This document shows, in pieces, positions 14,109 to 38,525 of a stretch of 64,000 nt of DNA (within the stretch, counting starts at the first letter, position 1; every line of letters starts with the position of its first letter). Under the pieces are notes generated by a model, which saw nothing but the letters and a program-made list of their open reading frames with translations, was not told the origin of the DNA and made no database searches. Source of the DNA: an uncultured Verrucomicrobiae bacterium (GTDB taxonomy: Bacteria > Verrucomicrobiota > Verrucomicrobiia > Limisphaerales > Palsa-1400); NCBI GenBank assembly GCA_963702845.1, contig OY969763.1:2624001-2688000 (forward strand), given 5' to 3'. The translations under genes and the position numbers were made by a program.

Positions 14109-14136
14109 TCGGTTGGGTCAAAGTTCAAGAAGCAAA
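14065..14136 (+). repeat. L repeat, copy 1 (native oxidoreductase 3' end plus downstream 28 bp)
   Basis: GCCGTCCTTACCGCACCGGGTACAAACATCCCGAGGTGGCATAATCGGTTGGGTCAAAGTTCAAGAAGCAAA; recurs at 14589, 23784, 31568 and 38099. Confidence 0.9.
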
Positions 14137-14154
14137 ACACCCTGCGGATGCCGT

Positions 14155-14445
14155 TTAACTCGAAGTGTTCTCAAAATAATCAGCACCGCACTTAGAACAG
14201 TGTGTGACCTCGACGGTTACCGTGCGCAATGGTTTTTTACACTTCGGACATACCAGTCGATTGTTGCCGAGGACAACAGCGAAAATGCAGAACACCACCC
14301 CGAAGCCGGGCAACATAGGGCCAATCCGGCCACTCGGCTGACCGAATTTCGACATCAGGAGACCGATGCCAACGAGCACTATCCCGGTGTGCAACAAGTA
14401 TCGAGATGTCTTAAGGCGGGATTTCGAAATGCGTGTATTGGTCAT
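14155..14445 (-). CDS. Small membrane protein with CxxC...CxxC zinc ribbon (cassette cargo 1)
   Basis: Two TM segments, CPKC and CSKC; ATG 7 nt after GTTCGGC. Confidence 0.7.
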   Translation of the reverse strand: MTNTRISKSRLKTSRYLLHTGIVLVGIGLLMSKFGQPSGRIGPMLPGFGVVFCIFAVVLGNNRLVCPKCKKPLRTVTVEVTHCSKCGADYFENTSS

Positions 14446-14495
14446 TGGTTCAGCCGAACAATTAATACGACATGTGTTCGCATATTTTTTAATTC

Positions 14496-14548
14496 ACGAA
14501 CAGCGCCTTATATATCACCAACCCGCTGTTCGTTGAAGCATTCTTCAC
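14496..14548. repeat. R hairpin repeat (attC-like), copy 1
   Basis: ACGAACAGCG...TATATCACCAACC-CGCTGTTCGT followed by TGAAGCATTCTTCAC. Confidence 0.8.
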
Positions 14549-14559
14549 TTCAGCCTTTG

Positions 14560-14585
14560 TAGCCTTTAGAATTTAGCCTTCGTTC
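14560..14585 (+). repeat. S repeat TAGCCTTTAGAATTTAGCCTTCGTTC, copy 1
   Basis: Identical 26-mer at 15263-15288 and 23756-23781; inverted variant near 32082-32099. Confidence 0.85.
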
Positions 14586-14588
14586 TGG

Positions 14589-14660
14589 GCCGTCCCTACC
14601 GCACCGGATACAAACATCCCGACGTGGCGTAAGCGGTTGGGTTAAAGTTCAACAAGCAAA
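14589..14660 (+). repeat. L repeat, copy 2 (displaced oxidoreductase 3' end, RPYRTGYKHPDVA*)
   Basis: 65/72 identical to 14065-14136; the four coding differences are all at third codon positions. Confidence 0.92.
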
Positions 14661-14678
14661 GCAGAGTGCCGACGTAGT

Positions 14679-15035
14679 TCACTCTCTGGCACCGGTTTGA
14701 TACAGATGCTCCGCACAATAAACAACCCCTCGGACGCGAGGTTGATCGCATCCCTGCCGAATGCACTTCTCGTCCGTAAGTCCGCCTCGCGACCGTATTA
14801 AATAATCACGCCGCAACAACGTAGTGTCGAATTCTCTCCACCCATCTCGCTCGGGGATCTTAACAGCGAACTGTGTCTGAAGTTTGTCGAATTCGTCCAC
14901 CGACCAAAGCTGGTCGCAACACGGGCAGCGAAAGAGACGCACCCAATTACCTGTTTCCAATAGTTCGAAGCGCCCGATTTCCGGATGATTGTCCAGCTTT
15001 ACGATGTCTGGAAGCTGAGAGCATTTGCACGGCAT
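14679..15035 (-). CDS. Small Cys-rich putative metal-binding protein (cassette cargo 2)
   Basis: CKC, CPCC, C-x4-C...C-x2-H; start just after GTTACGC. Confidence 0.7.
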   Translation of the reverse strand: MPCKCSQLPDIVKLDNHPEIGRFELLETGNWVRLFRCPCCDQLWSVDEFDKLQTQFAVKIPERDGWREFDTTLLRRDYLIRSRGGLTDEKCIRQGCDQPRVRGVVYCAEHLYQTGARE

Positions 15036-15073
15036 AGCGAATTCTGACGGCGTAACATGGTTCTCTGACCAGA

Positions 15074-15117
15074 GCCTTGTATATCACCAACCCGCCATTC
15101 GTTGAAGCATTCTTCAC
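15074..15117. repeat. R hairpin repeat, copy 2 (left arm replaced)
   Basis: GCCTTGTATATCACCAACCCGCCATTCGTTGAAGCATTCTTCAC. Confidence 0.8.
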
Positions 15118-15137
15118 GGGACCAATTTGGTGGCGGC

Positions 15138-15210
15138 AGCTCCGTTAGGAGCGACATGTTTATAGAAACAACCCACAAAAAGACCAAACAAGCTCCGTAG
15201 GAGCGGCATG
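15138..15210. repeat. REP-like doublet AGCTCCGT(T)AGGAGCGRCAT
   Basis: Two direct copies of a short hairpin GCTCC-GT(T)A-GGAGC. Confidence 0.6.
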
Positions 15211-15289
15211 AGCAAAGAACAGAGCCGCGTGCATCAAAAGATCTCTTTTTTGTTTTAGCCTTTAGCCTTTAGAATTTAGCCTTCGTTCC

Positions 15290-16732
15290 ATGTCTCGATT
15301 GATGCGTTTATGCCGCTGGTGGTTGCTCGTGCTCGCTTTGAATGCCGGCGCGGCGGAAAAGCTCAACGTGCTCTACATCATCTCGGATGACTTGCGTGAC
15401 ACGGTGGGTTGTTATGGCAACACCGCGGTGAAGACTCCAAATATTGACCGGCTGGCGCAACGCGGCGTCTGCTTCGAGCGGGCTTATGCGCAATACCCCA
15501 TTTGCAACCCAAGCCGCGCTTCCTTTCTGACCGGCTTGCGTAGTGAGCAAACGCACGTCGTCGGCAACCGGACCATGTTCCGCACGAAGCTGCCGGACAT
15601 CGTCACTCTCCCACAACTGTTGCGGCAGCAAGGATGGCATGCGGCGTCTTTCGGCAAAGTATTTCATGTCGGAGAAAGCATCGGGGAAATTCGCGACGGC
15701 TGGATGGACCTGGGCAAATCGTGGGATGAAGCGGCTATGTTCCAGCCCACCGAGGCCGGGCGCGTCATCGAAGGCCGCAACCTGACCGGCGGCAAATTGA
15801 AATGGTGCGAATGGGGCGCGACGGCGGGCGGCGACGATGATCAACCCGACGGCCAGACGGCGCAACACGCCCTGGCAGTCATCGAACGGGAAACCAAGGC
15901 CGGCAAACCGTGGCTCGTCGCAGCCGGTTTTCATCGACCGCACGACCCGTTTATCTCGCCCAAAAAGTATTTCGACCTGTATCCGCCCGGCTCGATGAAA
16001 ATCTATCACGACCCGACCAACGTCACGAAGCTGCCGCCCCTATCCATAGCTGGTGGCGCGTTTACCGAGGCTTTCAATGCATTCACCGAGCGCGAGCGCC
16101 AGGAATTTCAACGCGCTTACTATGCCGGGGTTTCTTTTACCGACGCGCAAGTCGGCCGGCTCATGGAAGAATTGGATAAGCGCGGGCTTTGGGAACACAC
16201 ACTGGTGATTTTCTCGGGTGACAACGGTTATCATCACAACGAGCGGGGTTGGTGGAACAAAAACACCTTGTTCGAGCGCAGTTGCCGGGTGCCGTTGATT
16301 GTCGTGGCGCCAGGCGGCGCGCGGGGCAAAGTCTGTCACTCACTGGTCGAGCTTGTAGATATTTACCCCACCGTGGCGGATTATTGCGGGCTGCCGGCAC
16401 CGCATAAATTGGCCGGTCAGAGCTTGCGGCCCTTGTTGCAAAATCCCGCAGGCAAAGGGCGCGACGCCGCTTTCACCCTGGTTGTGCGCGGCAGAAACTA
16501 CGGCCAGGCGGTGCGCACCGAACGCTGGCGCTTCATTCAATGGAGCGATGGAAACATGGAACTCTACGACGAACTAAAGGACCCGGAAGAAACGCACGAC
16601 GTTTCCTCCGCGCGTCAGAACGGGGCTGTGATTACGGAATTGAAAACCCTGCTCAACCAACGCATCGGCCCTTACCAACCCGACGCCCCAGCCAAAGTCA
16701 GCCAGCAACGCAGAGGCAAAAAGACAACGTGA
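15290..16732 (+). CDS. Sulfatase (iduronate-2-sulfatase-like)
   Basis: SDDLR, CNPSR formylglycine motif, GKVFH, GFHRPH; signal peptide. Confidence 0.93.
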   Translation: MSRLMRLCRWWLLVLALNAGAAEKLNVLYIISDDLRDTVGCYGNTAVKTPNIDRLAQRGVCFERAYAQYPICNPSRASFLTGLRSEQTHVVGNRTMFRTKLPDIVTLPQLLRQQGWHAASFGKVFHVGESIGEIRDGWMDLGKSWDEAAMFQPTEAGRVIEGRNLTGGKLKWCEWGATAGGDDDQPDGQTAQHALAVIERETKAGKPWLVAAGFHRPHDPFISPKKYFDLYPPGSMKIYHDPTNVTKLPPLSIAGGAFTEAFNAFTERERQEFQRAYYAGVSFTDAQVGRLMEELDKRGLWEHTLVIFSGDNGYHHNERGWWNKNTLFERSCRVPLIVVAPGGARGKVCHSLVELVDIYPTVADYCGLPAPHKLAGQSLRPLLQNPAGKGRDAAFTLVVRGRNYGQAVRTERWRFIQWSDGNMELYDELKDPEETHDVSSARQNGAVITELKTLLNQRIGPYQPDAPAKVSQQRRGKKTT

Positions 16733-16816
16733 TCAACCACGCCCGCTCGTTTACGACTCTGGTCATCTTGTAATTTGTATTTTCCCCTCAACCCTCAACT
16801 ATCCCCCCTCTCACCG

Positions 16817-17890
16817 CTACTTTCCAAACGCCGTTTCAACAAACCGGTACGCTTCACGCCGGATTGTCGTCGGGAACGAATGTTCGCATTCCGGACTTGT
16901 GACCACAAAGCGATCGGCAGCGCCGAGAAGTTTGTAGACCGATTCGATCTCCGGTATCGCCGACCGCACGCCCGCGAATTCGAAGTTGGCGTCGAACTTG
17001 GGACTATTGGAAAAAACCGCGCGCGGCGCGATCGCCCCAATCACTTCCGTCAAATCAAACGGCACCTCATCCGGATTACTGTGATAAACATCGCGGATAG
17101 CCGGCATATACCGATCCTGCGCCCAGTTCGCCAACTTCTTCCCGCCATAATAATAATGGAACGGCGTCCACCCGCAGCTCGTCACCACAGCCGTGATACG
17201 CTCATCAAAGGCCGCTGTGAAAAGCGCGTTGTGCCCGCCAAGGGAATGGCCGATGACAGCGATCCGCTTCCGGTCCACATCGCTGCGCGCGAGCAAGACA
17301 TCGACGCATCGCATATTGTCTGCGATCGCCTTCATCGTTCCTGACCGATACGGCGAAGTTTTGAAGTTATAATTCGTCAGCTCGCCGAACGAAGAATAGT
17401 CCGGCGCAATGACAACGTATCCCAGCCGTGCAAGCTCGGTCGCATAGCCAAAATTGCGATCACCGGGAAACGTATCGTCACTGATATCTTTCCCAACCGT
17501 CGCAGTCTGCTGCACCGCCAACGCCGCCGGCCGACGCTCGTTTGGCCCGATGTCATTCGGAACGTAGAGATAAGCCGGAATATGTTCGTTAAACAGCGTA
17601 TCGATCGTCACCAATTCGCGGTGATAAGTGGCGAATGACAGCGACTGGCGGATCTGCACCACCGGCGCGGCGAGCTTCGAGCGATCGGGCAAGGGACCCA
17701 TCACCTGTTGCATTCCGGAAAGAATAGCTCGCCGCCGCAACTGCCAATCGCCAGGAGTCGCTATCGTTTTGATTTGTCCGGAAGGATTCGCAAACCAATC
17801 AAGCCTGGCATGATCAAGAGACCCGCCATTAACCGTGGCAATCGTTAGGAAAATTAAAAAAATGGAACCGATCAGAACAGACAGTTTCAC
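16817..17890 (-). CDS. Secreted alpha/beta hydrolase (dienelactone hydrolase/acetyl xylan esterase-like)
   Basis: GHSLGG nucleophile elbow, IAPR, C-terminal His (EHSF); start codon uncertain. Confidence 0.8.
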   Translation of the reverse strand: MKLSVLIGSIFLIFLTIATVNGGSLDHARLDWFANPSGQIKTIATPGDWQLRRRAILSGMQQVMGPLPDRSKLAAPVVQIRQSLSFATYHRELVTIDTLFNEHIPAYLYVPNDIGPNERRPAALAVQQTATVGKDISDDTFPGDRNFGYATELARLGYVVIAPDYSSFGELTNYNFKTSPYRSGTMKAIADNMRCVDVLLARSDVDRKRIAVIGHSLGGHNALFTAAFDERITAVVTSCGWTPFHYYYGGKKLANWAQDRYMPAIRDVYHSNPDEVPFDLTEVIGAIAPRAVFSNSPKFDANFEFAGVRSAIPEIESVYKLLGAADRFVVTSPECEHSFPTTIRREAYRFVETAFGK

Positions 17891-17991
17891 GGCGCGAGCA
17901 TAAAACAGTTGCCGGAAAGTGGTGAGAAATTTTTCGCGCCCGCGTCCTGAAGGGACAACACGAAACGCTCCGTCCTGAAACGGCTGGTCAA

Positions 17992-18900
17992 TCAATTCGC
18001 CAGGGGAGATGTGCACGCCTGGACACGGGGAAGGTCGTCCGAATTATCAGCGGTTTTATAATAACCTGTAAAAGTGAGCACAGCGGTTCCGTGCCACTTC
18101 CAATACTCAGCGTGGCCATCGGCAAAGGAAAAAGTGGTGCCTTTGTTGTGGCGGCTGCCCGGGTAATTCCACCATTGGCCGTCATGCGGCCCGCCCGGTA
18201 CGGCGATGGCAAAGTCGCCGTCATCCACGCTAAACTCATTCTCATCCACAAAGACAATCATCTTGCCAAACCCGTTGGTATGAGCACCGATTTGGGCGAA
18301 TTTCATAATGCTATTTTGTCCATTGAGCAGTATTCCACCTTGTGGACTACTGGCCGTGAACCCGCCAAGAGGATAGTTCATCGACACGGTACGTGCCTGG
18401 GGCCCCAGCGTAGCGGCGAAAGTAAACGGCGGGTTCGCCGGGTAGAGAATTTGCCTCGTATTGGCCGGACACGCATAAATGGAAAGTGACCCATTGTATG
18501 GAAAGAGAACCCCATTGGGGATCCAAGGCTTCGCCGGGTCAGTCTGCGCCCCGCCTTGAATCCACGAGTTTGGCAAACCGTTGCCACCCGGTCCGTTGAC
18601 GGGCGCGGCTCCGTTCAGTGGCAGATGATCGTTGTAGTCGCCAACATACATGTGCCAGCACAGTTGCAACTGCTTCATGTTGCTGAGGCATTGAGTGGTC
18701 TTGGCTTTTTCCTTGGCTTTGGCCAGAGCAGGCAACAATAACGAGGCCAAAATCGCGATGATGGCAATAACCACCAGCAATTCGATCAACGTAAAACCCG
18801 CCCGCTTGTCTGCGCCCGATTCCACCAATCGCGTCGGCGCGCCGGATTGATTTATCCCTCTATCCAACTTTGGTGTCATATCATTCATAACGCTCTTCAC
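17992..18900 (-). CDS. Prepilin-type N-terminal methylation / H-X9-DG domain protein
   Basis: [39 protein letters not shown]. Confidence 0.9.
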
Positions 18901-21900
18901 TCAGGGTTGTTGAAAGAACATGCGATAAAAGACGTTAGTCTGGTTCGCATTCGGAGTGATGGTGATCTGGTTGGTCGAGGTCGAACCACTTACAGGGAAC
19001 CATGCGTTGGTTACCGCCACCCCTACCGAGTTGCTCTGTATCTGCCAGCCCGTGTGGTCAGCCGGCCACGAGAGCGTCAATTGATTGTTCGAATATGAGA
19101 CCGTCAGGTTTGTCGGGGTGGGATTAAACAACGTAAAATGGTGTTGCGCGCTGAGATAGTTGGCCAGGCTTGCAGCGTCGCTGCTGGACAAGGGCGAGGC
19201 AGCGACGATCAGTTCGGAAAGGTCGCCCGCCAGACGATTGAAACCATCAGACCGCGCGCCGATGTATAGCGGCTGTCCGTTATCGAAGCTATTCGACTCG
19301 TCGAAGTTGGCGCTCAACAGACCCGTTCCCGCAGGCTGGCCGTTAACATAGTGGCTGACGGTATTGCCCGTGTCGGAAGCTATCACGACGGAGGTATTGC
19401 CGATGGACGGCCCGCTCGTCGCGGGGTATGAGCCGTAATGAATACCTGCGACCGTGCCATTGCCATTGCCGCGGTAGAGTTGCGCCCCGGGGGTGCCAAG
19501 ATAGAAATCATACGGTGCGGCAATGTTTTTATTCGCGGTTCCAGTCTTTGAAACGAGATGGCCCGTTCTGCCGTTCAGAACCCTGGGGTTGACCACGGCG
19601 ATAATGGACATATCACCGGTGATACCCAGGGTGGAAGAACCGCCGGCCGTAGTCATGTAGTTCGTAACCAAATCGTTGGTGTTGAAACGGATCACCGGAT
19701 CTCCCGATGCATTGGTGGCAAGCTGTCGGTTGAATCGTCGGCCCGCCACCCCCGTAAATGGTGTTGTTATTTCCGGACAGGTCGCTCCATAAGACCACAC
19801 TGTTCGTCGTCGCATCGTGACGCCGGTATCGGCCCGGACCCAGAGAGCCGCGTTTGGATAAAGTCCTACCGGCGTTGAAGCGGGGTCATGGTAAGACCAA
19901 ACAGATCCTTCACATTTTGAATGGTCAGCGAGTAGAAGCCGGGGTTGGCATTGAAGGTCAAAGGCGAGGTGGTCAACACCACTTTGTTGGGCAGTGTCGC
20001 CCATCGCGGCGGAAAGGACACTAGCCCCGTTGTTCAACGAATAATTGCCGGCAACGGTGGCTGTGGCGGGGTCCACCGCTTCGTCAAAAGTGACAATGAC
20101 TTGATTCGTGTTCCAAATGGGTATTCCCGCCAACGTGACGAAGGGCGGCACCGTGAGAACCGTCAAGGTATTTGTGGTGCTATAGACAAAGGAACCATTG
20201 GGCAAGGTCACCTGCACATCGAACTTCGTCGCCATTGTCGTTGGGAGCCAGAATTGGCGTGGTGTAAGTCGAATTGGTGGCGCCCGAGAATGTTCGTGCC
20301 GTTTTCCTGCCATTGGAAGGAGAAGCCGTGAGCGCTCCCCGCGCCTGCCACAAACGTATAGGTCACGGAAAATCCATTGGAGGAGGTGGTGCTTGCGGGC
20401 AGGTCGGTGGTAATGGCAAAGGTGAAATATTTTACGCCCAGATAATTGTCCACAATGGTGCGGTCTGCGTCCGACAGGGCTGTGTTAAAGAGCATGATTT
20501 CCGCAATCTGGCCTCTCATTTTCGGATTCGCGGCTTGCAGATCGCTGCGCCCGCCGATCCATACTGGCGTCCCGCCGTCATAAATGCCCGGAGGGTTGCC
20601 GGTAACGGGCCGATGGGCCAGCTGCCGTTGTTTGCGCCGTTCAGCCAGAAGTTGAAGTTGTTCGTCGCCAGCCCGTTTTCTGGCGGAAATGACAGCATGG
20701 AGGCATAACGTAAGGAGTGTTGATCAAAATCGTGCCTCCGATGCCGCCAGCCGGGGCGTTATTGAAACCATTTCCATATTGCACAGTTTTCACTGGCGGC
20801 TTGGGTCCCAATCGAAAGGCGCCGGCAAATTGCCCCACGTTTTGTTGAACAAATCGTTGCCGGCGGTTGAATAAAATTCGGCGACGGCATACATCGTTGT
20901 GTTGCTAGTCATTGAATCCAGACTGGGTGAGGATGGCGCCTGCAGACAGTGAAGAACATTGGCGCCGCTGCCATGGTTGCCGAAGTCCAATGACGGTTGG
21001 CCATTGTTAATGATGTTCGTTCCCGGCCGGGCCGCGCTGCCGGTTAAACCGACTGAAGGAACACCGAAGAATTGGGAAGCGTTGTTGCGCGTTGGTGGTT
21101 TGGTCGAGCCATTGCACCACGTTGTTGTTGGCATCAAGCACCACACCCGAATCCCCTCTCAAAAAGAGCACCAAACCTGCGGGAAGCACCGCTTGGTGCT
21201 GGCAGTCATGGCGTTGCCAAACAAATCCTGGACGTTTTGAACTTTAAGATAATAGCCGGTGTTTGTGTTCAGCGTCGAAGTCGTGCAGGATGACGTTATT
21301 GGACGTACTGCCGAAACTGGCGGAAACAATGGAAGCCAGCACGGAGTCAGCGTGATAATTAGCGGGATTCAAGCCGGTCACCGGGTCAACCGCCTTGGAA
21401 AAGGCAACACGATGTTCGTCGCATTCGCCGTTTTCGTCACGGAATAAACCGTTGGCGGGCCGGATACGACGGCCAAAGTTGCGGTGGCGCTGTTCGTCGA
21501 GCCGTTCACGTTGGTGATAGTTACGCTGTAGTTTAATCCGTTGTATGACGGATCCAGCGACGGGGTGGTGTAGAAGGCATTGGTCGCTCCGGCGATCGGA
21601 GTGGTCGGGCCGCTCGCGCCATTGGTCATCCATTGGTATGCAGCCGCGGGATAATCATTCGTGACGCCCACCCAGAAAGTGGCGGTTTGACCGACCTGCG
21701 CCGTTCTATTCTGGGGTTGCTCGATAATCGTCGGCGCTCCCTGGCGCATCAGGACATCAGTCAAAGTAAATTCTTGGAAAAACCCTTGCGCGGCATCGGC
21801 ACCAATGCCCACGTACTGGATCATGGTCGGATTGACATTTGCAGTTGCGTAGGAGTCCACTTGAACCGAATTGGTAAAGAATCGATAGGTCCAGCCTCTC

Positions 21901-22553: not shown

Positions 22554-22732
22554 GGCGTGATTCTGATGGTGGTTAAACTGATACTGAACTAATTACGAAA
22601 TTGCGTTTTGTACGCGGCGAGGCCAATGGCGAATTACTTTTCACAACGGCTGATTTCTGAAGATATTGCACATCCGAACCCGTCTAGTCAAGCGTGCGTC
22701 GCCGTTCAGAAGGGATTTTTGTAAATCAAATC

Positions 22733-22777
22733 AAAAATCAGGTGTCAAAAAATCAGGTGTCAGTCCTAACTATTGAC
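22733..22777. repeat. Tandem AAAAATCAGGTGTCA repeat, REP-like
   Basis: AAAAATCAGGTGTCA-AAAAATCAGGTGTCAGTCCTAACTATTGAC. Confidence 0.5.
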
Positions 22778-23034
22778 GCAAACGCACTCCTTCCTTTTTG
22801 TTGGCTGCGTTTAGCAATCTCTCAAGATGTCCCATTTATTTTCCCGCATCACTGGTGAAACAGAAGAGCCGCCGCCTACGGATCTGGCACCCTCACCCCA
22901 CGACAAAAACAAACGCGAAGCGCATGGAGTGCGCCGTCATCCGGCGCTTTTCCCCTTTTTGCGTCTTTCGCGTCTTTCGCGGTTTTCCCTCTCTGCGTTC
23001 TATGCGGCGAAATACGCCTGCCTCAAGGCTGTGT

Positions 23035-23448
23035 TTACTCCGGCGAAACTCTCCTGCGGAATTCTTTTTTGGAAGAGTGGCGGGATTTGTTGGCGAGCAT
23101 GCGTTCCTTCGCGCCGCGGCTGCGGCGGAGTTTTTGGCGGCGCGCCTTTTCAACCCTGGCGCGTTCGGCTGCCGTGCGTTCCTTTCGCATCGACTCGATC
23201 TTGTCGAGAAGGAGTTTGCGGGCGAGGAAGCGATTGAGGCCCTGTTGTCGGGTCTCCTGGCATTTGACCTGCACGCCGCTCGGACGATGGAGGAGCATCA
23301 CGCACGTGGCAACCTTGTTGACGTTCTGTCCGCCATGACCACCGGAGCGGACGAAGGATTCGTCGATATCGGTTTCGCGGACGCCGAGGGAAGCCATCCG
23401 TTGGGCGAGTTGCGTTTGTTTATCGGTTGAGACCTCGGAGGTGCTCAT
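23035..23448 (-). CDS. Peptide chain release factor-like peptidyl-tRNA hydrolase (ArfB/YaeJ-like)
   Basis: RSGGHGGQNVNK GGQ motif, short RF-1 domain with basic C-terminal tail. Confidence 0.85.
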   Translation of the reverse strand: MSTSEVSTDKQTQLAQRMASLGVRETDIDESFVRSGGHGGQNVNKVATCVMLLHRPSGVQVKCQETRQQGLNRFLARKLLLDKIESMRKERTAAERARVEKARRQKLRRSRGAKERMLANKSRHSSKKEFRRRVSPE

Positions 23449-23536
23449 GGCGGGAGGGTAGTGGTAAGGGCATCCGCTTGGAAGAAAACTTAGTTTGGTC
23501 CGAAATCGGTGGTGGGCGGAGATGGGCATCCGTAAA

Positions 23537-23715: not shown

Positions 23716-23755
23716 AGAGACACGAACCTTGCGAAACTCGGTCTCTGTTTTCCTT

Positions 23756-23829
23756 TAGCCTTTAGAATTTAGCCTTCGTTCCGCGCCGTTCCTACGGCAG
23801 CGGATACAAACATCCCGAGGCCGGCATAA
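23756..23829 (+). repeat. S repeat joined to L repeat (copy 3)
   Basis: Same S-L junction as 14560-14632; CGCCGTTCCTACGGCAGCGGATACAAACATCCCGAGG. Confidence 0.88.
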
Positions 23830-27575: not shown

Positions 27576-27585
27576 CGCCCAATGC

Positions 27586-31001: not shown

Positions 31002-31004
31002 ATT

Positions 31005-31562
31005 TTATTGGATGACGCAGCCAATGGCTTTGGTTTCCTTGAGTTTTACCGGTTGGCCCGCGGCGATGGCGTCCAACGCGTCAATCAAATCATGTTGCCG
31101 AACCGATGCACGCTTTTTTCCAAACGCGGCATAGTTGTCATCGATGCGTCCCCGATATAACACCTCGCCGTTTTTTCCGAAGACGACGGCTTCCGGCGTT
31201 ACAGTGGCGCGCGCGAGTTTTACGAGCTGATGTTTGGGATCGAGCAAAACCGGCATGGAAAGATGATACTGTGTGGCGTGCTCCCGGGCGGCGGCAGGCG
31301 TGAGTTCCGGATCAACCTGGACGATATAAAATGCGCAGTTGGTGTGGCTGGCGGCGATGCGATTCAACTCGGGAGCGTAGCCATTTGAGACGGGACAATC
31401 CTGCCAGAAAAAAACCAGCACCGAAGCGTCCTTCTCCGCCGGCTTCAACGGGTGGCGAGCCACATCGGCCAAATCGCGGAAGACGACGTCAGGCAACGGG
31501 TCCGGCGCCGCAAGGCATAGACTCGCTGCGAAACAAAGGATGGCGCAAAGATATCGCATCAT
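31005..31562 (-). CDS. Redoxin (AhpC/TSA-like) protein
   Basis: DCPVS, TVTPEA, YRGRIDD, AIGC. Confidence 0.85.
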   Translation of the reverse strand: MMRYLCAILCFAASLCLAAPDPLPDVVFRDLADVARHPLKPAEKDASVLVFFWQDCPVSNGYAPELNRIAASHTNCAFYIVQVDPELTPAAAREHATQYHLSMPVLLDPKHQLVKLARATVTPEAVVFGKNGEVLYRGRIDDNYAAFGKKRASVRQHDLIDALDAIAAGQPVKLKETKAIGCVIQ

Positions 31563-31567
31563 GATAA

Positions 31568-31588
31568 AAACATCCGGAGCCGGTATAA
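31568..31588 (+). repeat. L repeat, copy 4 (KHPEPV*)
   Basis: AAACATCCGGAGCCGGTATAA. Confidence 0.7.
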
Positions 31589-31607
31589 CGACCTCAAAGG
31601 CCAGAAT

Positions 31608-31970
31608 CTAGTTCTTTGGCGCGTATTTTTGTATCCAAGGCTCTGGCTTATTGCCCAAATCTTCGCCCGTCTTCGTGCGCAAATACCCAATTATATCTCG
31701 AATGACATTCGTCCGCTGAAGATTACAAACCTGGTCGAGCGGTGACCCTTCTCTCTGCTTCATATTCAGGCCGTAGCTAGCGTACGATAGGCGCTTAGCC
31801 GCTTCTGGAACATTCGTGCCAAGCGCCTCATCGCGATACCGCTGCAAACCGAATACTTCTCTCTGGGCGTATGCAACTTCCACGTTTCGAGTCATGTCGC
31901 CGAGAAAGTGAATCACGACAATGAAAAACACTCCAAGCCCAGCCCATACTTTTATCCATCGAGGAATCAT
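31608..31970 (-). CDS. Small membrane-anchored hypothetical protein (cassette cargo 3)
   Basis: N-terminal TM segment, 120 aa; start shortly after GTTGAGGC. Confidence 0.7.
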   Translation of the reverse strand: MIPRWIKVWAGLGVFFIVVIHFLGDMTRNVEVAYAQREVFGLQRYRDEALGTNVPEAAKRLSYASYGLNMKQREGSPLDQVCNLQRTNVIRDIIGYLRTKTGEDLGNKPEPWIQKYAPKN

Positions 31971-31999
31971 AGGTTCAGTATGGCCTCAACAATTAATCC

Positions 32000-32049
32000 A
32001 CGAGCAGCAGGTTGTATATCACCAACCTGCTGTTCGTCGCAATTCAATC
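32000..32049. repeat. R hairpin repeat, copy 3
   Basis: ACGAGCAGCAGGTTG-TATATCAC-CAACCTGCTGTTCGT, with a compensatory pair relative to copy 4. Confidence 0.85.
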
Positions 32050-32106
32050 ATGGGACATCTTGGTGGCCGGGTCGCTGAAAAAAGGCTAAATGCTAAAGGG
32101 AAAAAC

Positions 32107-32190
32107 TACCGATGGCGCGGACGCGGAACCAGAGCTTGCTGCCGCTGGTCAATCCTTTCAACGCAAACTTGGATTTCTCAGAACAAGCGG
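32107..32190 (-). pseudogene. Relic of a fibronectin type III domain C-terminus
   Basis: Reads SEKSKFALKGLTSGSKLWFRVRAIG, with no start codon. Confidence 0.6.
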
Positions 32191-32366
32191 AGCATTGATA
32201 CCGTACGTCAGCGGTTTATCGAATCCCAAAAAAAGATTTCAGAGACTTCAATTGAAACAAAGTTTCATTTGTCCTTTCGATGATCTCAGGTCGGACTCCG
32301 CTGGAAAACACCCTTGTTCGCAAATCAAAAACCAGATAACAATCGTTCGAAAAAAACATAGAATAA

Positions 32367-32807
32367 ATGGAAAAAATCATCCCCCTGATCAGCTCCGGGA
32401 CGGAAGGTCCGCTTGGTTTAAAACATCTTCCCAGGCTATGGATAAAAACTTTACTGAGTGCGACTGGGCGACTTCCGGAAGGGTACAAGGACATTCGGCC
32501 GGGGTTTGACTTTGTCGTGTTGGAAGGTCTAGGGATCAATCCTGACTCTGCTCGCGAATTTATTTTCAACAATCGACCTACCTATCTGTCTTTTGAAAAA
32601 TGGATCTCCGAGCAGCCCGGCGTGGATGTTTCTCAAGAGAACATTTCGAAAATCAACGCGCTCCTGGTGGGCAGAATGAAAGCGCCCGAGGCTCGATTCG
32701 AAATACTCAGAGAAAGCGGATTGCCTGAAGATACTCCGATAAAGGATGGGATCATGATAAACAATCTGGACGATTGGAAATCAGTTCATGATCAGGTGAC
32801 AAAATGA
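32367..32807 (+). CDS. DUF5069-like protein
   Basis: IPLISSG..GPLGLKHLPRLW...NNLDDW; lower GC than flanks. Confidence 0.75.
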   Translation: MEKIIPLISSGTEGPLGLKHLPRLWIKTLLSATGRLPEGYKDIRPGFDFVVLEGLGINPDSAREFIFNNRPTYLSFEKWISEQPGVDVSQENISKINALLVGRMKAPEARFEILRESGLPEDTPIKDGIMINNLDDWKSVHDQVTK

Positions 32808-33601
32808 TTCGAACAAATTGGCGTAGAAAAACCGGATTCAGCTTGGTGGAGCTTCTTGTCGTCGTCGCTGTCATCGGCATTTTAGCCGCATTGCTGCTTC
32901 CGGTGCTTTCGCGAGCGAAGGATTCCGGACGTTCCACCGCCTGCCGGAATCACCTTCGGCAAATGGGAATAGCCCTCCAACTTTACGCGCAAGACGACAA
33001 GGCCTTGTACCCGCACTACCTTGGTTCGGCTGGCTCTGCTTACGGCGATACCACAGGTCAACGGAGCCGAGCGGCTGGATTGGTCTACTGGTCGTCCAAC
33101 CTTCGCCCTTACGGCATGCTTGCCTGGACGAATCGGGCTTTTCATTGTCCGGGCTACACGGGAGAGATCGCTGCCCCGAAGTGGAAAGATGCTGCGGATC
33201 GCGCCGGCAGTTACGCTTACAATACCTATGGGGTGCGGACGGGCAACACCACCCGAGGAGCTTTTGGGCTCGGTCCAATACAGTATTGGCAGATGGCCCC
33301 CAGACTTTACGTGCCAGCGGTCTCCCAATCGAAAATTGCGTCGCCCAGCGAGTTCCTGGCGATGGGCGACGCTCTCATGAAGGTCGGCACGTCAGGCGCC
33401 TCGGATGTTTGGGGGTGCATCAACGCTTTCGGTGGCGAACTGGTGACTGCTCCTTTCGTGGCACGCCACGGCCGCAAAGACAATCAGGCGTATGTGGACG
33501 GCCATGTTTCGTCCAGAGCCCCAGGCGAGATTTACGATCCGGTGAAGACGGCCCCATTGTGGAACTACGACCACCGCTCGCATGAGGAGCTATGGAAGTA
33601 G
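32804..33601 (+). CDS. Prepilin-type N-terminal methylation / H-X9-DG domain protein
   Basis: GFSLVELLVVVAVIGILAALLLP; RHGRKDNQAYVDGH. Confidence 0.88.
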   Translation: MIRTNWRRKTGFSLVELLVVVAVIGILAALLLPVLSRAKDSGRSTACRNHLRQMGIALQLYAQDDKALYPHYLGSAGSAYGDTTGQRSRAAGLVYWSSNLRPYGMLAWTNRAFHCPGYTGEIAAPKWKDAADRAGSYAYNTYGVRTGNTTRGAFGLGPIQYWQMAPRLYVPAVSQSKIASPSEFLAMGDALMKVGTSGASDVWGCINAFGGELVTAPFVARHGRKDNQAYVDGHVSSRAPGEIYDPVKTAPLWNYDHRSHEELWK

Positions 33602-33657
33602 TGATTCAAATGGCCAAACATCGGCCGTGGGTCGCTGAGCCGCTGAAGGCAGACTGA

Positions 33658-34158
33658 GTGAGTTACTACACATCAATTTTCTGGGATTTAATCCACACTC
33701 CGTTTCAGCATATTGAGCTGATTTGGGGAATTGTGCCGCTCTACTTCGCCCTGCTGGTGAGCGAATTGAACTCCGCCAAGGCGAATTTCCGCACGGCGAT
33801 TCAGACGGGCTTCAGTTTTATCTGGGCGGCGGCGCAGTGGCTCTACCTTTACCGCCAAGCGCACCCGCATCTGGGGATTCAGGTGGAACCGCGCCCGGTG
33901 GTGCCGATCAACCTGTTCGTCACGTTCCTGGTGCTGGCGTTGGGTGCGGTGGCCTTGTTCAGCGGGCTGCGGCATCGCTTCCCCAGGTATGGCTCGTTCC
34001 TGGGCCAGACACGGTTTGCCAATTATTTCATGATCACGATCTATCCCATCCAGGCGCATTATTTTGTTTGGACGTGGGATCGTTTGGCGGCGATTGCAAT
34101 GTTTGCGGTGCCGGTGTGGCTGTTGCTGCACTTTGGGTTAATGCCGCTTAGGAAATAA
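33658..34158 (+). CDS. Hypothetical integral membrane protein
   Basis: 166 aa with 4-5 hydrophobic segments. Confidence 0.7.
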   Translation: MSYYTSIFWDLIHTPFQHIELIWGIVPLYFALLVSELNSAKANFRTAIQTGFSFIWAAAQWLYLYRQAHPHLGIQVEPRPVVPINLFVTFLVLALGAVALFSGLRHRFPRYGSFLGQTRFANYFMITIYPIQAHYFVWTWDRLAAIAMFAVPVWLLLHFGLMPLRK

Positions 34159-34200
34159 GACCGTCCGACCCATGACATCCATCCATTCGCGAAGAAATGT

Positions 34201-34280
34201 GTAGGAGACGAGGTGACGAGTCTCTGACTTCCTGTCGGACGAGCGGAGTTCAATTTGAGACTTGTCACCTCGTCTCCTAC
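34201..34280. repeat. REPIN-like inverted pair of GTAG REPs
   Basis: GTAGGAGACGAGGTGACGAGTCTC ... GAGACTTGTCACCTCGTCTCCTAC (23/24 inverted match). Confidence 0.85.
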
Positions 34281-34329
34281 AAAATTAAATTTTTGTCGCT
34301 TAGCCTGATGGCTGTTTTATTCTGGCGCG

Positions 34330-35376
34330 GTGAACCTGTCTATTCTGACCGCTTCCATTTTTCTGAGCGCAAGCATCGCCGCGCAGGCCGATAAAGCCGA
34401 TAGGTACCTGAATGCCCAAATGCGCGAGCATCGCATCCCCGGCCTTGCCTTACGCGTGCTTCGCAATGGCAAACCGATCAAGACGGCAGCTTATGGGCTG
34501 GCCAATATTGAATTGAACGTGCCGGTCACTTCGAAGTCGGTTTTCGAGATTGGTTCGGACACGAAACAATTCACTGCCGCCTGCATTCTCCTTTTGCAGC
34601 AGGAAGGAAAGCTCTCGGTTGATGACCCGATCACGAAATATCTAAAGGATGCCCCCGCGGATTGGAGCAACATTCGCATCCGCCATCTGCTTTCGCACAC
34701 GTCCGGGTTGAAAAGTTACACCGTCCTCGATGGTTTCGCCCTGACCCGCCATCTCACCCAAAAACAATTCATCGATCTCATCGCCAAACAGCCGCGCGAA
34801 TTCGCGCCGGGCGAGGCTTTCAATTATTGCAATACCGGCTACAACCTTCTCGGGCTGATTGTTGAAAATGTCAGTGGCGCGCATTACTGGCAGTTTCTGC
34901 GGGAACGCATCTTCCAACCCTTGGGCATGAACTCCACCACTTCGCGCGACCCGTCGATCATCGTCACCAATCGCGTGAACGGTTACGAGCATCCGCGTCG
35001 GGGTGGCTTGATCAACCGCGACTACGACCTCACGGACATCTTTGCCGCTGGTGCGATCGTGTCGACCGTCGAGGATCTCAGCCGTTGGAATAACGCTCTC
35101 GACACCGATAAACTTCTCAGCAGGGAAAGCAAACGGCAGATGTGGACCCCGGCCAAACTGAACAATGGCACAGAGACCGACTACGGGTTTGGCTGGCGCA
35201 TTTCAACGGTGGATGGCCACAGGAACATTGGCCACGGCGGCTCTACCTCTGGATTTTCTGCCACGATCCAGCGATTTCCGGACGATCATCTCGTGGTGAT
35301 CATCCTCAGCAACACTGACGAGGAAATCGCCACCAAGCTCGGTAAGCAAGTCGCCACATTCTACTTTGCCAAATGA
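34330..35376 (+). CDS. Serine hydrolase, beta-lactamase (AmpC/PBP-like) family
   Basis: SDTK (SxxK), LLSHTSG, YCN, HGG. Confidence 0.9.
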   Translation: MNLSILTASIFLSASIAAQADKADRYLNAQMREHRIPGLALRVLRNGKPIKTAAYGLANIELNVPVTSKSVFEIGSDTKQFTAACILLLQQEGKLSVDDPITKYLKDAPADWSNIRIRHLLSHTSGLKSYTVLDGFALTRHLTQKQFIDLIAKQPREFAPGEAFNYCNTGYNLLGLIVENVSGAHYWQFLRERIFQPLGMNSTTSRDPSIIVTNRVNGYEHPRRGGLINRDYDLTDIFAAGAIVSTVEDLSRWNNALDTDKLLSRESKRQMWTPAKLNNGTETDYGFGWRISTVDGHRNIGHGGSTSGFSATIQRFPDDHLVVIILSNTDEEIATKLGKQVATFYFAK

Positions 35377-35573
35377 GCTCCCGACCGCTGCTGTCTATAA
35401 AAAGCGCGCGTCTTGAATTCTACTCGGGCATTGGTGGTTCCCTCTAAAATCGTCGGCAGTATCAACTGGACGTCGGTTGAATTCTTAAGGCCCTCACAGA
35501 GTTGAGCGCCAAAACGGTTCAAGGGTTTGACCTTGATCAAAGTCAATAAAACCGAAAAAATTCCAGTCCGTTT

Positions 35574-38093
35574 ATGAAAACTACCCAACTGGCCCTTCTC
35601 GGTGCGCTCCTTGCTTTCAGCTCGTTACATCTTTTCGCCGCCCCACTTAATTGGGATCCGGCCGGAAGCGCAGGTGCGGCGCTGGGAGGACCTGGAAACT
35701 GGGACCAGGCATCGTCCGATTGGTTCAACGGAACAGTCGATATGATTTGGGCCAACGCCAACAACGATGACGCGATTTTCTCTGGAACCGCCGGCACGGT
35801 CACATTGACGGAAAATATTTCCGCCGGAAATTTATATTTTACCAACGCGACCGGGAATTACGTTATTGGGAATGCGACAGGCGCGGAAGTTTTGACTGTT
35901 GCCGGAGCCGTTGACACTGGCGGCGGTGAACATATCGTCACCGCGCCGATCGGCAATTCGAGCACGCTGAACAAGAATGGCGCAGGACGGTTGCATTTGC
36001 CCGTGGACAACGGTGCGACCCTCACCGGCGCTGTGGTGATCAACCAAGGCGATCTTTCGGTTGAGAACAATAATGGCGCGGGCCAATATACTTCGATAAC
36101 GGTAGCCGACGGCGCGGCTTTGGTGTTGAACGGCGGCGCTACGGGGTTGCCTGGGTTTTATGCTAACGTGACCATCAATGGTTCAGGCATCACCAACAGC
36201 GGGGCGCTTCGGAACCTGTCGGGTGTAACGACTTTTTATGGACAGATTACATTGGGAGAGAACAACAGTGTCATTTATGCGGATAGCGGCAGCGCTTTGG
36301 CTTACCTCGGGTCAAGCCCGCTTACCGACAATGGAAATAATTATAATCTGATTATCAGCGGGTCGGGGACGGGCAACGTTCATTTGGGTCAAACCAGCAT
36401 TGGCGGGACCCTGTTCGTCCAAGGCCCCGCGTCGTGTTACGCTTACCTGACCTCAATTACGCCGGCAGCTTGGAAAAGCACGTCTATCTCGAGAGGCGGC
36501 ACGCTTTACGTCGAGGACGCTACCTGCTTTGGAACGCAACCGGGCACACTGATGACGACAAACGTGCTTTTGGATGGCGGCACGATTAACTCGACTGGCA
36601 CCTACACAATGTATGCCACCGATGGTATCACGGGGACCACCAATGGCGGCACATTGACTGTCGCTAGTGGAACCTTGACGACCTGCAATATTTACAGCCA
36701 ATCAAATGCCGCTGTTACACTCGGAGGCGCGGGAAGCAGTAGACCCGGCGGTGCGGCTGGCGCAACGACCGGCACCATCAATTTGGGCGCAGGAGCCCTC
36801 ATCAAGAGCGGCGGCGGCGATTGCCATTTGGGTTTCGCCAATCCTGCGCTTGAAATCTACAGCAACCTCGTGGTGAACGGCGGCAGCGTCACTTTCAATT
36901 ACGATGTGACCGCCGGTCAAATAACTAGTTTGGGAGCGGTGCCCAGCACTCTCAATGCGTCGAACATCGTGTTAAATGGAGGCCAGCTGCACGTCGGTCA
37001 CAGCACCACGATCGGCGCCACGCGCGGGATCTACGTTGCGTCGGGTGGCGGAACCATCGAGGATGTCACTTCCGGCGGAACTGTGACTGTCGCGTCGCCA
37101 ATCAGCGGGCCGGGCAGTATGAACTTTCCCCTGGGCAAGACCGGCAGCACCACGACGGTGGCTTTAACGACCAATAACAGCTATGCCGGAACGACAACAG
37201 TCGGCGCCAGTAGCATCCTCAACGTTGGCGCAGGCGGCGCGAATGGAACGCTCGGCGCGGGCAATACCACTGACAACGGCACGCTGATAATCAGTCGAAC
37301 GGGCAGCTATTCATACAACAAGATCATCAGCGGCACCGGGTCATTGACCAAAAGCGCGAGCGGGACCCTCACCCTCACCGGCGCGAGTACTTATTCCGGC
37401 CCCACCACCAACACCACTGGCGCGCTGTTTATTAACAACACCAGTGGCAGCGGAACAGGCACCGGCTCTGTGTTCATCACCTCGGGCACCCTTGGCGGAA
37501 ACGGCTCTATCAGCGGCGCGGTCACGATGAATTCCGGTTCGACGCTTGCTCCGGGACCGACGGCCTTGTCGGTGGGGACATTGACCATTAGCAACAATCT
37601 CACCATTGGCGGCAACGTAGCCATTGCCATCAATAAATCACTTTCACCAAGCAACAGCGCGGTGGTTGTTACTGGCGCCTTGACCGATTCCGGCGCGGGA
37701 ACGCTAAACGTTACCAACCTGGGCCCGGCGCTCGCCGTGGGCGACAGGTTCCAAATCTTCAACCAACCTCTCACCGGCAATGCCATGGCGGTTTCGGGCG
37801 GCGGAGTAATTTGGAACAATAATCTTGCGGTGGATGGCTCCATTTCCGTCGCCACAGTGCCGACCCCGGGCATCGCCAGTTATTCATTCAGCGCTGGCAA
37901 CCTGATCCTGGCGGGAACCAATGGCTATCCGTCGGCTGGTTTCAGCGTGCTGACCTCCACCAACGTGGCCGCTTCCCTGACGAATTGGACGACCTTCACC
38001 ACCGGGTCCTATGACGCGAGCGGCAATTTTGCCATCACCAACGCCATCACGAACACCGCCCCTACGCAGTTCTTCGTTATCAAGTCGCATTAA
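35574..38093 (+). CDS. Secreted beta-helix protein with autotransporter-associated (PATR) repeats
   Basis: GSLTKSASGTLTLTGASTYSGPT, NNSYAGTTTV repeats; PVC-type C-terminal 'VLTSTN...FFVI'. Confidence 0.88.
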   Translation: MKTTQLALLGALLAFSSLHLFAAPLNWDPAGSAGAALGGPGNWDQASSDWFNGTVDMIWANANNDDAIFSGTAGTVTLTENISAGNLYFTNATGNYVIGNATGAEVLTVAGAVDTGGGEHIVTAPIGNSSTLNKNGAGRLHLPVDNGATLTGAVVINQGDLSVENNNGAGQYTSITVADGAALVLNGGATGLPGFYANVTINGSGITNSGALRNLSGVTTFYGQITLGENNSVIYADSGSALAYLGSSPLTDNGNNYNLIISGSGTGNVHLGQTSIGGTLFVQGPASCYAYLTSITPAAWKSTSISRGGTLYVEDATCFGTQPGTLMTTNVLLDGGTINSTGTYTMYATDGITGTTNGGTLTVASGTLTTCNIYSQSNAAVTLGGAGSSRPGGAAGATTGTINLGAGALIKSGGGDCHLGFANPALEIYSNLVVNGGSVTFNYDVTAGQITSLGAVPSTLNASNIVLNGGQLHVGHSTTIGATRGIYVASGGGTIEDVTSGGTVTVASPISGPGSMNFPLGKTGSTTTVALTTNNSYAGTTTVGASSILNVGAGGANGTLGAGNTTDNGTLIISRTGSYSYNKIISGTGSLTKSASGTLTLTGASTYSGPTTNTTGALFINNTSGSGTGTGSVFITSGTLGGNGSISGAVTMNSGSTLAPGPTALSVGTLTISNNLTIGGNVAIAINKSLSPSNSAVVVTGALTDSGAGTLNVTNLGPALAVGDRFQIFNQPLTGNAMAVSGGGVIWNNNLAVDGSISVATVPTPGIASYSFSAGNLILAGTNGYPSAGFSVLTSTNVAASLTNWTTFTTGSYDASGNFAITNAITNTAPTQFFVIKSH

Positions 38094-38098
38094 GCTCT

Positions 38099-38160
38099 CC
38101 GCGCCGGACACAAACATCCCGAGCCGGCATAACCGGTTGGGTTAAAGTTCAAGAAGCAAA
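38099..38160 (+). repeat. L repeat, copy 5 (RAGHKHPEPA* plus GGTTGGGTTAAAGTTCAAGAAGCAAA)
   Basis: Homologous to 14075-14136. Confidence 0.9.
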
Positions 38161-38168
38161 GCGGAGGC

Positions 38169-38459
38169 TCACGATGCGCTCTTTTTCGAAAACGGCAGAC
38201 TAAACAACAAACCCCAGCAAAGACTCTGCAAAATCATCACTAGAGTGCTTCCTTCGGAGCCAAATCCTTCCCGGTGGTGCAGCAGCTTAAATATCGTAGT
38301 CAGAGGAAAAGTAAAAATATACATCGGGATCTCCCAAGAACCGTGTCCGCCAGTAGGACTCGTCGCTTCCGCAGCTGCTAGAACGATGCAGCCAAATCCC
38401 AGCAGGAGATGAATAATCCCAATTACAATAGCGACTGTGAAATTGGGGCGCAGATGCAT
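38169..38459 (-). CDS. Small membrane protein (cassette cargo 4)
   Basis: MHLRPNF..., 2-3 TM segments; ATG 7 nt after GTTCGGAC of the hairpin. Confidence 0.7.
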   Translation of the reverse strand: MHLRPNFTVAIVIGIIHLLLGFGCIVLAAAEATSPTGGHGSWEIPMYIFTFPLTTIFKLLHHREGFGSEGSTLVMILQSLCWGLLFSLPFSKKSAS

Positions 38460-38469
38460 ACAGATTGTC

Positions 38470-38518
38470 CGAACAGCGGGTTGTATATCACCAACCCGCT
38501 GTTCGTCGCAATTCAATC
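38470..38518. repeat. R hairpin repeat, copy 4
   Basis: Perfect 14-bp inverted repeat CGAACAGCGGGTTG-TATATCAC-CAACCCGCTGTTCG. Confidence 0.88.
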
Positions 38519-38525
38519 GCGCAGT

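Follow-up and report, generated by a model that had tools for sequence, protein, structure and literature searches.

Single small genes between attI-related repeats and host-gene ends in an uncultured Verrucomicrobiae bacterium: a probable integron derivative

Introduction

A stretch of 64,000 nucleotides from an uncultured Verrucomicrobiae bacterium (C1:2624001-2688000 of a 6.03-Mb one-contig genome that is 89.76% complete; hereafter the window, and G000 for the genome) contains four units in which one small gene, the cargo, lies between two recurring sequences, L and R. This arrangement raises the question of where these genes come from and how each came to stand alone in such a slot. A preliminary description proposed that they are promoterless integron-type cassettes swapped into a fixed slot, either as an unusual form of the attC-site clusters that have no integron integrase (CALINs) or as a new cassette system. 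The reading favoured here, to which we assign a probability of roughly 60%, is that the units are single genes without attC that lie between R, which is related to attI, and the end of a host gene, where a promoter-like repeat (B) may or may not be present; insertion by the integron integrase (IntI) at multiplied attI-derived platforms, locking by attC deletion, and later movement by recombination are each likely. Cargo genes, R, B, and the host-gene ends are considered in turn below, before this reading is weighed against others.

Layout of the four units

R and a minus-strand open reading frame (ORF) of 96-120 aa are present in all four units, as originally proposed, whereas L—consisting of a host-gene end (A) followed by B—is complete in only three of them, with unit 3 having a 26-nt scrap of A and no B. 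The components, some located by hidden Markov model (HMM) search, are as follows.

12753-14108, plus strand: Gfo/Idh/MocA oxidoreductase (Gfo) gene, Pfam PF01408/PF19051; A, the first half of L, is made up of its final ~44 bp
14106-14137, minus strand: B1 repeat (CTTTGC..TTGAAS-TTTRAC), truncated before the putative -10 box and pointing into the Gfo gene end
14155-14445, minus strand: cargo 1, 96 aa, with a membrane segment and C-terminal zinc-ribbon-like Cys pairs
14453-14502, minus strand: full attI-like motif, ending TATTAATT-GTTCGGC (HMM E 2.4e-7; one of 46 in the genome)
14459/14458, minus strand: presumed crossover G/TT of unit 1, within the attI-like motif
14498-14548, no strand: R1, a partly decayed 13+8+13 palindrome with a tail
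14587-14632, plus strand: A2, in frame and from the 3′ end of a different Gfo allele (RPYRTGYKHPDVA and stop), with third-position differences
14629-14662, minus strand: B2 (HMM)
14679-15035, minus strand: cargo 2, a 118-aa Cys-rich protein; cassette gene without attC
15050-15056, minus strand: GTTACGC, probable cassette core R′, positioned as R′ is in homologous cassettes, with no attI motif left before it
15067-15117, no strand: R2, one arm decayed, no hairpin (HMM, folding)
31563-31588, plus strand: A3′, a 26-nt Gfo-end scrap (KHPEPV and stop; HMM E 0.22), the sole L part in unit 3
31608-31970, minus strand: cargo 3, 120 aa; cassette gene with its attC cut to 6 nt (31598-31603)
31984-32001, minus strand: short attI-like motif (GGATTAATT-GTTGAGG), with an internal deletion between ATTAA repeats; the same form occurs at three other loci
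32002-32052, no strand: R3 hairpin (folding)
38097-38162, no strand: A4 (38097-38132, ..HKHPEPA and stop) and B4 (38130-38162) (HMM)
38169-38459, minus strand: cargo 4, a 96-aa membrane protein with one homolog
38471-38521, no strand: R4, a perfect 13+8+13 palindrome (z -6.9 and -8.2)

The GTT-starting heptamers described ahead of the cargos do lie 7-14 nt before the start codons (14453-14459, 15050-15056, 31984-31990, and 38468-38474; 7, 14, 13, and 8 nt ahead of the respective ATG), but none is strictly GTTRRRY. Since a GTT was found at that spacing before 430 of 2244 arbitrary ATG codons, the heptamer alone is a weak feature, and in unit 4 the GTTCGGA is an arm of R4 itself and is uninformative about a cassette start. 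Units 1-3 each consist of a single small ORF shortly after a GTT core, as in integron cassettes.

Cassette origin of the cargo genes

No Pfam family was found for any of the four cargos, and their origin was assessed from homologous loci. For cargo 2, 53 metagenome loci were found, 36 of which (one plasmid record included) were kept as full-length and non-redundant, partial and duplicate loci being dropped. The GTT 9-mer before the start and the AAC 9-mer after the stop were complementary at 8-9 of 9 positions in 23 of these 36 loci, compared with 1.9 loci on average and at most 6 over 300 shuffled pairings, and one homolog locus adjoins intI. For cargo 3, a Verrucomicrobia-type attC lies right behind the stop codon in 4 of 7 homolog loci. 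Cargo 2 and cargo 3 were thereby demonstrated to be integron cassette genes, and the view that the cargo is cassette material has held up, their homologs being true cassettes elsewhere. The proposed search for cargo homologs in attC arrays, positive for these two, gave a weaker answer for cargo 1, which has 14 relatives: four homolog loci with 28-44% identity yielded a match to the attC HMM (made from the attC sites of G000 itself) in two cases and an attC-like sequence after the stop, recognized by eye, in three, so that cargo 1 is probably cassette-derived. Cargo 4 has one homolog, with 58% identity, and no Pfam or NCBIfam match. In all, 19 R-B cargos from three genomes showed no cross-matches; among the 15 others, one is a SMI1/KNR4 and one an Imm53 protein.

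What the units lack is attC. A complementary R″ after the stop codon is absent from all four, with unit 3 retaining 6 nt (TGGCCT), while R″ is present at three other R loci, and no attC falls in the window among the 35 attC HMM matches in the genome at E<0.1. Over the 13 R loci of the genome, attC is intact at one, collapsed at two, and gone at ten, including all four window units; the collapse at C1:3189874 lies between two GCTG repeats. The attI part is likewise full, internally deleted, or gone. When the 46 genomic loci with the long attI-like motif described below were put through an automatic test, matching cassette ends were detected at nine and an attC match at five; attC loss is thus general. 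Clusters of attC do exist elsewhere in G000.

R and the attI core of the family

R was counted by HMM search at 13 loci in the genome (E<0.01; none in the reversed genome used as a control), so that nine of its loci lie outside the window, and it is also found in G001 and G002, two independently assembled congeners. The arm of R that faces the cargo forms the 5′ end of the long attI-like motif (52 bp), of which the genome has 46 copies, alongside 29 scattered attC sites of the Verrucomicrobia type (E<1e-3; both 0 in the reversed genome). The core of this motif, GAACA-N4-GTTGTATAT, adjoins the intI start codon in four related genomes (G043, G045, G015, and G018), and in the first two it lies between intI and the first cassette of the attC array that follows. 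A protein of the same intI clade in G013 passes the cut-off of the integron integrase model TIGR02249, with 277 bits. In the form GAACA-N4-GTTGTATATYA, the core occurs in 20 of 30 family genomes and 0 times in the control. Among 30 core loci examined, four have a full or near-full intI and 12 have only its first 57-89 codons.

These 12 solo cores with an intI remnant (L219, L221, L223, L226, L229, L234, L236, L237, L242, L243, L244, and L247), several per genome, break intI in a similar range, which may mark a recombination or deletion hotspot inside the gene and suggests a family-wide route of platform multiplication. Two further observations concern the long motif in G000: one copy, at C1:4979513, lies 685 bp upstream of recA, facing away from it and preceding several small ORFs, with no intI remnant there, and the copies at C1:179048 and 4310131 share their downstream sequence, pointing to duplication of platform and cargo as a block.

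In R the core is on the plus strand and directed away from the cargo, and the long motif consists of two cores back to back; given this orientation, the cargo sits where intI sits in the relatives. The intI promoter of the relatives reads TATACA, 17 nt, TACAAT, and the R-linked long form reads TATACA or TATATA, 17 nt, TAAAAA. From orientation and position together, we infer that the intI promoter now faces the cassette, such that R would drive cargo transcription. The units were described as promoterless; that description is not supported, as R appears to contain a promoter-like sequence homologous to the intI/cassette promoter region of the family. As judged by sequence, the match to the core is clear in unit 1, partial in unit 3, and absent in units 2 and 4. 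With family attI sites the long and short forms share the core and a TAATT-GTT before the first gene; unlike such sites, which occur once per integron and beside intI, G000 has 46 long forms and 13 copies of R, no intI, and a core that is doubled or palindromic.

The earlier remark that no intI is nearby was extended to the whole of G000, where nothing exceeded the TIGR02249 cut-off, although the genome is 89.76% complete and a plasmid could be missing. A tblastn search with the integrases of six relatives retrieved only two recombinases (308 and 328 aa) with 25-33% identity. G000 carries other tyrosine recombinases, and IntI above the same cut-off is present in 7 of 40 relatives.

R was also described as a hairpin. 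This holds for R1, R3, and R4, which fold with z of -5 to -8, but not for R2 (z -1.6 and -0.9). R3, R4, and most genome copies have 13-bp inverted arms around an 8-bp asymmetric spacer, which is the geometry of loxP and FRT. The spacer is well conserved and the arms are decayed in R1, R2, and G001, and no stem covariation beyond that of shuffles was detected (101-428 of 500 as high; seven sequences). With a stem that decays without covariation and a spacer that is kept, a promoter or protein site fits better than a required hairpin; on the same geometry, R is possibly a recombinase core site. Outside the genus, the 25-nt pattern of R was found in 1 of 300 other order-level genomes, at three mismatches, an exact search gave no match to an R 29-mer in public genome contigs, and an R 20-mer had none in viral contigs. 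Two candidate identities were rejected: as dif/pdif halves, neither R nor B was matched by a regular expression built from the dif consensus, and as a LexA operator, the Verrucomicrobia box TGTTC-N4-GAACA occurred 11 times against 11 expected, with no canonical lexA found.

Beyond R, the units border on different host sequences.

About 15114-15134: host-gene end scrap (..ATKLVP and stop) after R2, by sequence
To about 32140: broken host-gene scrap (KLWFRVRAIG..SDPATKM) after R3, by sequence
38526-39146, minus strand: 206-aa conserved hypothetical gene, no Pfam or NCBIfam match

An R lies 12-21 nt past the stop codon of the 206-aa gene and of two of its six other copies or pieces; the G002 ortholog has another neighbour and no R behind it. 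The scraps belong to a ..WSDPATKMVP-stop family of which G000 holds short pieces only (at most 35 open codons upstream), often directly before R (window 15114-15134 and 32049-32140; C1:1329831, 1694201, 1696458, and 2528202). A second recurring host-gene scrap (..HVRHLPRRRKHGAS and stop) lies on the far side of B at C1:517919, 3189874, 3794596, and 2348121.

B, a promoter-like 35-mer

B, the second half of L, is a 35-mer with 10 copies in the genome and none in the reversed genome at the same threshold as for R. Whole copies precede host genes on the minus strand. At tlyA of both congeners, B supplies the ATG and places TTGAAC at -35 and CACCTT at -12 from it; this spacing corresponds to the leaderless-promoter pattern of G000, in which TAnnnT peaks at -12 (118, vs ~30-50 far upstream; 4235 starts), although the -10 of B at tlyA reads CACCTT and not TAnnnT. 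Of 25 family loci, only the 2 of the congeners have B ahead of tlyA, and it thus behaves like an acquired promoter; on the same count, an ancient tlyA promoter was rejected as its identity. Other host genes are preceded by B at C1:3182938, C1:1329343, G002:C77, and G001:C789, and at the Gfo locus B lacks its -10 part. B therefore has the look of an acquired, putative mobile promoter. It resembles the putative mobile promoters reported by Nijveen et al. (2012; PMC3575422), as far as that account describes them, in recurring upstream of unrelated host genes and in its -35/-10 spacing at tlyA, and differs from them in being shorter, in usually being tied to an R-cargo block, and in having no -10 at the Gfo locus.

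Probably displaced ends of the Gfo gene

The A half of L recurs downstream of the Gfo gene together with a further repeat, H, and a sulfatase gene.

14549-14586, plus strand: H, a TTTAGCC-type heptamer repeat directly abutting the A2 scrap
15250-15289 and 23752-23782: further copies of H, ahead of the sulfatase ATG and of A3, respectively (repeat families)
15290-16732, plus strand: sulfatase gene (PF00884), right flank of the slot and syntenic in G001
23752-23829, plus strand: H and A3 (A3 at 23786), another scrap of the Gfo end, joined to H at the same junction as A2 is, without B, cargo, or R

A genome HMM search detected six extra copies of A, at 14587, 23786, 31563, and 38097 in the window and at C1:4525712 and 4697946 elsewhere, the four in the window being at most 24 kb downstream of the Gfo gene and on its strand. 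The ending RRPYR..HP is found in Gfo homologs from 18 of 30 family genomes, and the scraps translate as in-frame C-termini of other Gfo alleles. All four differences between A2 and the resident Gfo end over 14 codons are at codon position 3 (~1 in 80 if random), A2 has GGA and GCG-TAA-GCG in common with the Gfo gene of G001, and A3, A3′, and A4 bear or approach the HPEP ending of family homologs. In-frame sequence, third-position-only changes, and family-like endings together indicate that the scraps are former working gene ends and not neutral local duplicates. Their lengths vary (26, ~36, 44, and 44 bp in the window), with no constant crossover point and no integrase in the window; in an independent metagenome contig (run X6, record 21), a 111-bp Gfo end lies directly behind the sulfatase stop.

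L is thus composed of a host-gene end and a promoter-like repeat, and it gave no folding signal as attC or as a hairpin (z -0.7 to +0.4). The cargo stop lies from -1 to +108 nt from the B core, and in G001 the ORF reads into B; junctions this variable are what deletions would leave, and not a fixed crossover at L. On these three grounds, the idea of L as a recombination site is not supported.

The slot in other genomes

In G001, whose Gfo protein is 91% identical to that of G000, the Gfo gene is followed by a degenerate B, a different 126-aa ORF, an R of the R1 variant, a hicB-like gene plus a neighbour, an R remnant, H, and the sulfatase gene. At tlyA, G001 has a B-cargo-R-like block, G002 has B without cargo, and G000 has neither. 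The notion of swapping is therefore upheld insofar as slot content differs between lineages; no sign of swapping at present was found.

Nine public DNA runs share 5-9% of the words of the window and none more than 9%, and no RNA run was among those listed as sharing them. Their contigs, matched at a likeness floor of 80% and each taken from a single contig, represent relatives of G000, and those of two runs link R to H and the sulfatase gene via a shorter spacer. None of these contigs spans the bodies of cargo 1 or cargo 2, and no circle junction is among those listed; neither point was used as evidence, nor was a joint of 14099 to 14597 in run X7 (side 35), which is ambiguous between two copies of L. 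An inverted pair of REP-like GCTCCGT(T)AGGAGCG repeats (REP, repetitive extragenic palindrome) at 15139-15212, between R2 and the sulfatase gene, has no counterpart in the X1 and X4 contigs that match this region, and its coverage in run X1 is high.

Other features of the window

An Rfam scan of the window returned a tRNA only. Just upstream of the H-A3 pair, an RF-1 domain gene at 23035-23529, presumably ArfB-like, has 96% DNA identity to G002 vs 82-90% for its neighbours, which suggests a possible recent transfer. Direct repeats of 205 bp (92% identity; 39885-40089 and 41612-41816) flank RCC1-repeat ORFs split over frames (40106-40894 and 40846-41502) that look like a broken or rearranged gene. 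At 7299-9216, ORFs for Heparinase II/III-like and DUF4962 domains overlap by 8 bp in different frames, possibly as one frameshifted gene. Long intergenic inverted repeats, also REP-like, are located at 34195-34286 and 62692-62774, with arms of 30 and 28 bp.

Formation of the units and alternative explanations

In the favoured scheme, R would derive from a platform carrying the family attI core, doubled back to back in the long motif and pointing away from the cargo. With the intI promoter turned towards the cassette, R would drive the cargo; IntI, since lost, would have inserted one cassette at G/TT, and deletion of attC would have locked it in place; the attC and attI parts are seen in a graded series of states among the loci. 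Subsequent copying of the R-gene-B blocks would have carried along pieces of neighbouring genes, and the blocks would also have passed from one lineage to another. At the Gfo locus, each incoming allele with its downstream DNA would have pushed the older gene end downstream to leave the A scraps. Movement and stacking would proceed by homologous and microhomology recombination of incoming DNA; the presence of ComEC and RecA in G000 permits, but does not show, such uptake and recombination. Loot et al. (10.1101/2022.09.11.507474) show that cassettes insert at attG sites in genomes and that excision can occur outside the insertion point; flanking DNA captured in this way by IntI may have contributed to the multiplication of the platforms. 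The modules combine three kinds of left flank with five of right flank in various ways. Together with the variable junctions and the lack of terminal repeats and target duplications, this mixing fits platform insertion, with deletion and recombination afterwards, better than an exact swap.

Several points weigh against this scheme. Cassette origin rests on distant homologs for cargo 1, and cargo 4, with its single homolog, is no more than a candidate; the full attI-like motif is present in one of the four window units, and units 2 and 4 have none. The promoter roles of R and B are argued from spacing only, a sigma-70 consensus scan having found neither, and 35 bp of B is short for homologous exchange. 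For the identical H-A junction of A2 and A3, random joining is no better an account than copying or a preferred site, and the A scraps at C1:4525712 and 4697946 are far from the Gfo gene. Successive IntI insertions should give arrays and not single genes, and the scheme gives a poor account of why B and R are so regularly paired with exactly one gene between them, and of the tidy 13+8+13 form of R. Furthermore, the evidence consists of static states, with no step seen in action.

In an alternative based on mobility, B and R would delimit a non-autonomous mobile unit, or R would be a core site for some tyrosine recombinase, with one captured cassette moved at a time. Eight of the ten copies of B face an R at 296-502 bp, always with one ORF from R to B (chance 0.003), and 3-4 additional pairs occur in the two congeners; R is exactly 13+8+13 with a well-conserved spacer, the cargo-side edge of B is fairly sharp at CTTTGC, modules lie directly behind stop codons, and other tyrosine recombinases are available in the genome. 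However, five of the 13 R copies are without a B and two of the 10 B copies without an R, junctions vary on both sides, and the R arms decay without covariation while the spacer stays. Hallmarks of insertion sequences or miniature inverted-repeat transposable elements were limited to 4-6 nt matches, of the order of chance, at the outer edges of modules 1, 2, and 4, with no terminal inverted repeats or target duplications; no recombinase or transposase adjoins any R in the loci viewed, a genome-wide transposase search not having been made, and none is among the 58 window ORFs scanned with Pfam. A mobile unit is therefore regarded as unlikely, though it is the rival that best survives.

A related proposal, which we hold only tentatively and consider quite improbable, is that the R-gene-B arrangement is a genus-specific one-gene exchange slot, derived from an integron platform and needing neither attC nor IntI, in which R would act as promoter and recombination handle—possibly as a core site for a host tyrosine recombinase—and B, as a promoter directed outwards, would shield the next host gene, with exchange between lineages still ongoing.

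According to the swapping model of the preliminary description, IntI acting in trans exchanges cassettes in and out of a fixed slot, with L serving as attC and the GTT heptamer as the crossover. The cassette origin of the cargo, the different slot genes of G000 and G001, and the full attI-like site of unit 1 are in keeping with it, and IntI could visit from the relatives that have it. Nevertheless, L does not fold, is half host-gene end, and has no R″ complementary to the cassette start; G000 has no IntI, the GTT of unit 4 belongs to R, and with attC missing, the cassettes are not excisable by the known route. This model is consequently rated as doubtful.

Equally little is to be expected of a model in which the A scraps are att sites of an integrative element, equipped with an integrase of its own, that targets the 3′ end of the Gfo gene and makes it good with a spare in-frame end, tandem integrations stacking segments and the R-B units being passengers. 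The A copies are same-strand direct repeats bounding segments, and A1/A2 and the other in-frame scraps are able to restore the gene end, as in 3′-end integrative elements; the third-position-only differences of A2 would suit a replacement end, and A2 and A3 share one junction. Opposed to this are the differing scrap lengths (26-111 bp), the lack of an integrase in the window, and the sulfatase gene, which lies inside one such segment yet keeps its synteny in G001, where no A scrap precedes it.

An assembly artefact or chance repeats, conceivable insofar as G000 is a single assembly of which public runs share so little, can be set aside as very improbable, since R and B recur in two independently assembled congeners as diverged rather than identical copies and the R-H-sulfatase order recurs in the contigs of two public runs.

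Relation to known systems and implications

The units share with integron cassettes, CALINs, and SALINs (single attC sites lacking an integron integrase), as defined by Cury et al. (2016; PMC4889954), small ORFans whose start is preceded by a GTT core, the occurrence of homologs in attC arrays, and the lack of an integrase nearby. In that source, a CALIN is defined by its attC sites, at least two without intI, and a SALIN by one; with no attC in any of the four units, the proposed CALIN membership falls, and they are neither by definition. The same source suggests attC decay as a step towards permanent fixation. Unlike the attG insertions described by Loot et al. (10.1101/2022.09.11.507474), the window units are at copied attI-derived platforms, and a recurring promoter-like repeat forms their downstream boundary. 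Among the accounts consulted, the model that comes nearest to the stacked A scraps is sequential displacement (Kirchberger et al., 2017; PMC5361080) at the type VI secretion system (T6SS) effector-immunity loci of Vibrio and at Rhs orphan ends, in which a conserved gene anchors incoming DNA and old 3′ ends, together with the genes behind them, are pushed back in order without an integrase, by what is proposed there to be homology-facilitated illegitimate recombination. Here, by comparison, the anchor is a metabolic enzyme gene, and the passengers are former integron cassettes and larger segments instead of cognate immunity genes; the mechanism is a proposal in both cases. A literature search that covered few subscription journals found no description of dispersed, attC-less cassettes at copied attI sites in Verrucomicrobiota.

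The system thus derives from an integron, yet by definition it is neither an integron itself nor a CALIN or SALIN. New here are the R-gene-B module, its presence in two congeners, the difference in cargo between species, and the evidence from alleles that gene ends were displaced. The reading favoured is that of a known system's derivative in decay and recombination; if R or B were true, active recombination handles, this would amount to a new cassette system. Because their attC is gone, such genes escape attC-based detectors, and the cassette share of genomes is thereby undercounted. Overall, the units would show how integron cassettes can turn into fixed genes of the chromosome that still move after loss of the integrase and of attC, and the graded loci—with attC intact, collapsed, or gone and attI full, short, or gone—together with the cross-species slot make this domestication of cassettes testable.

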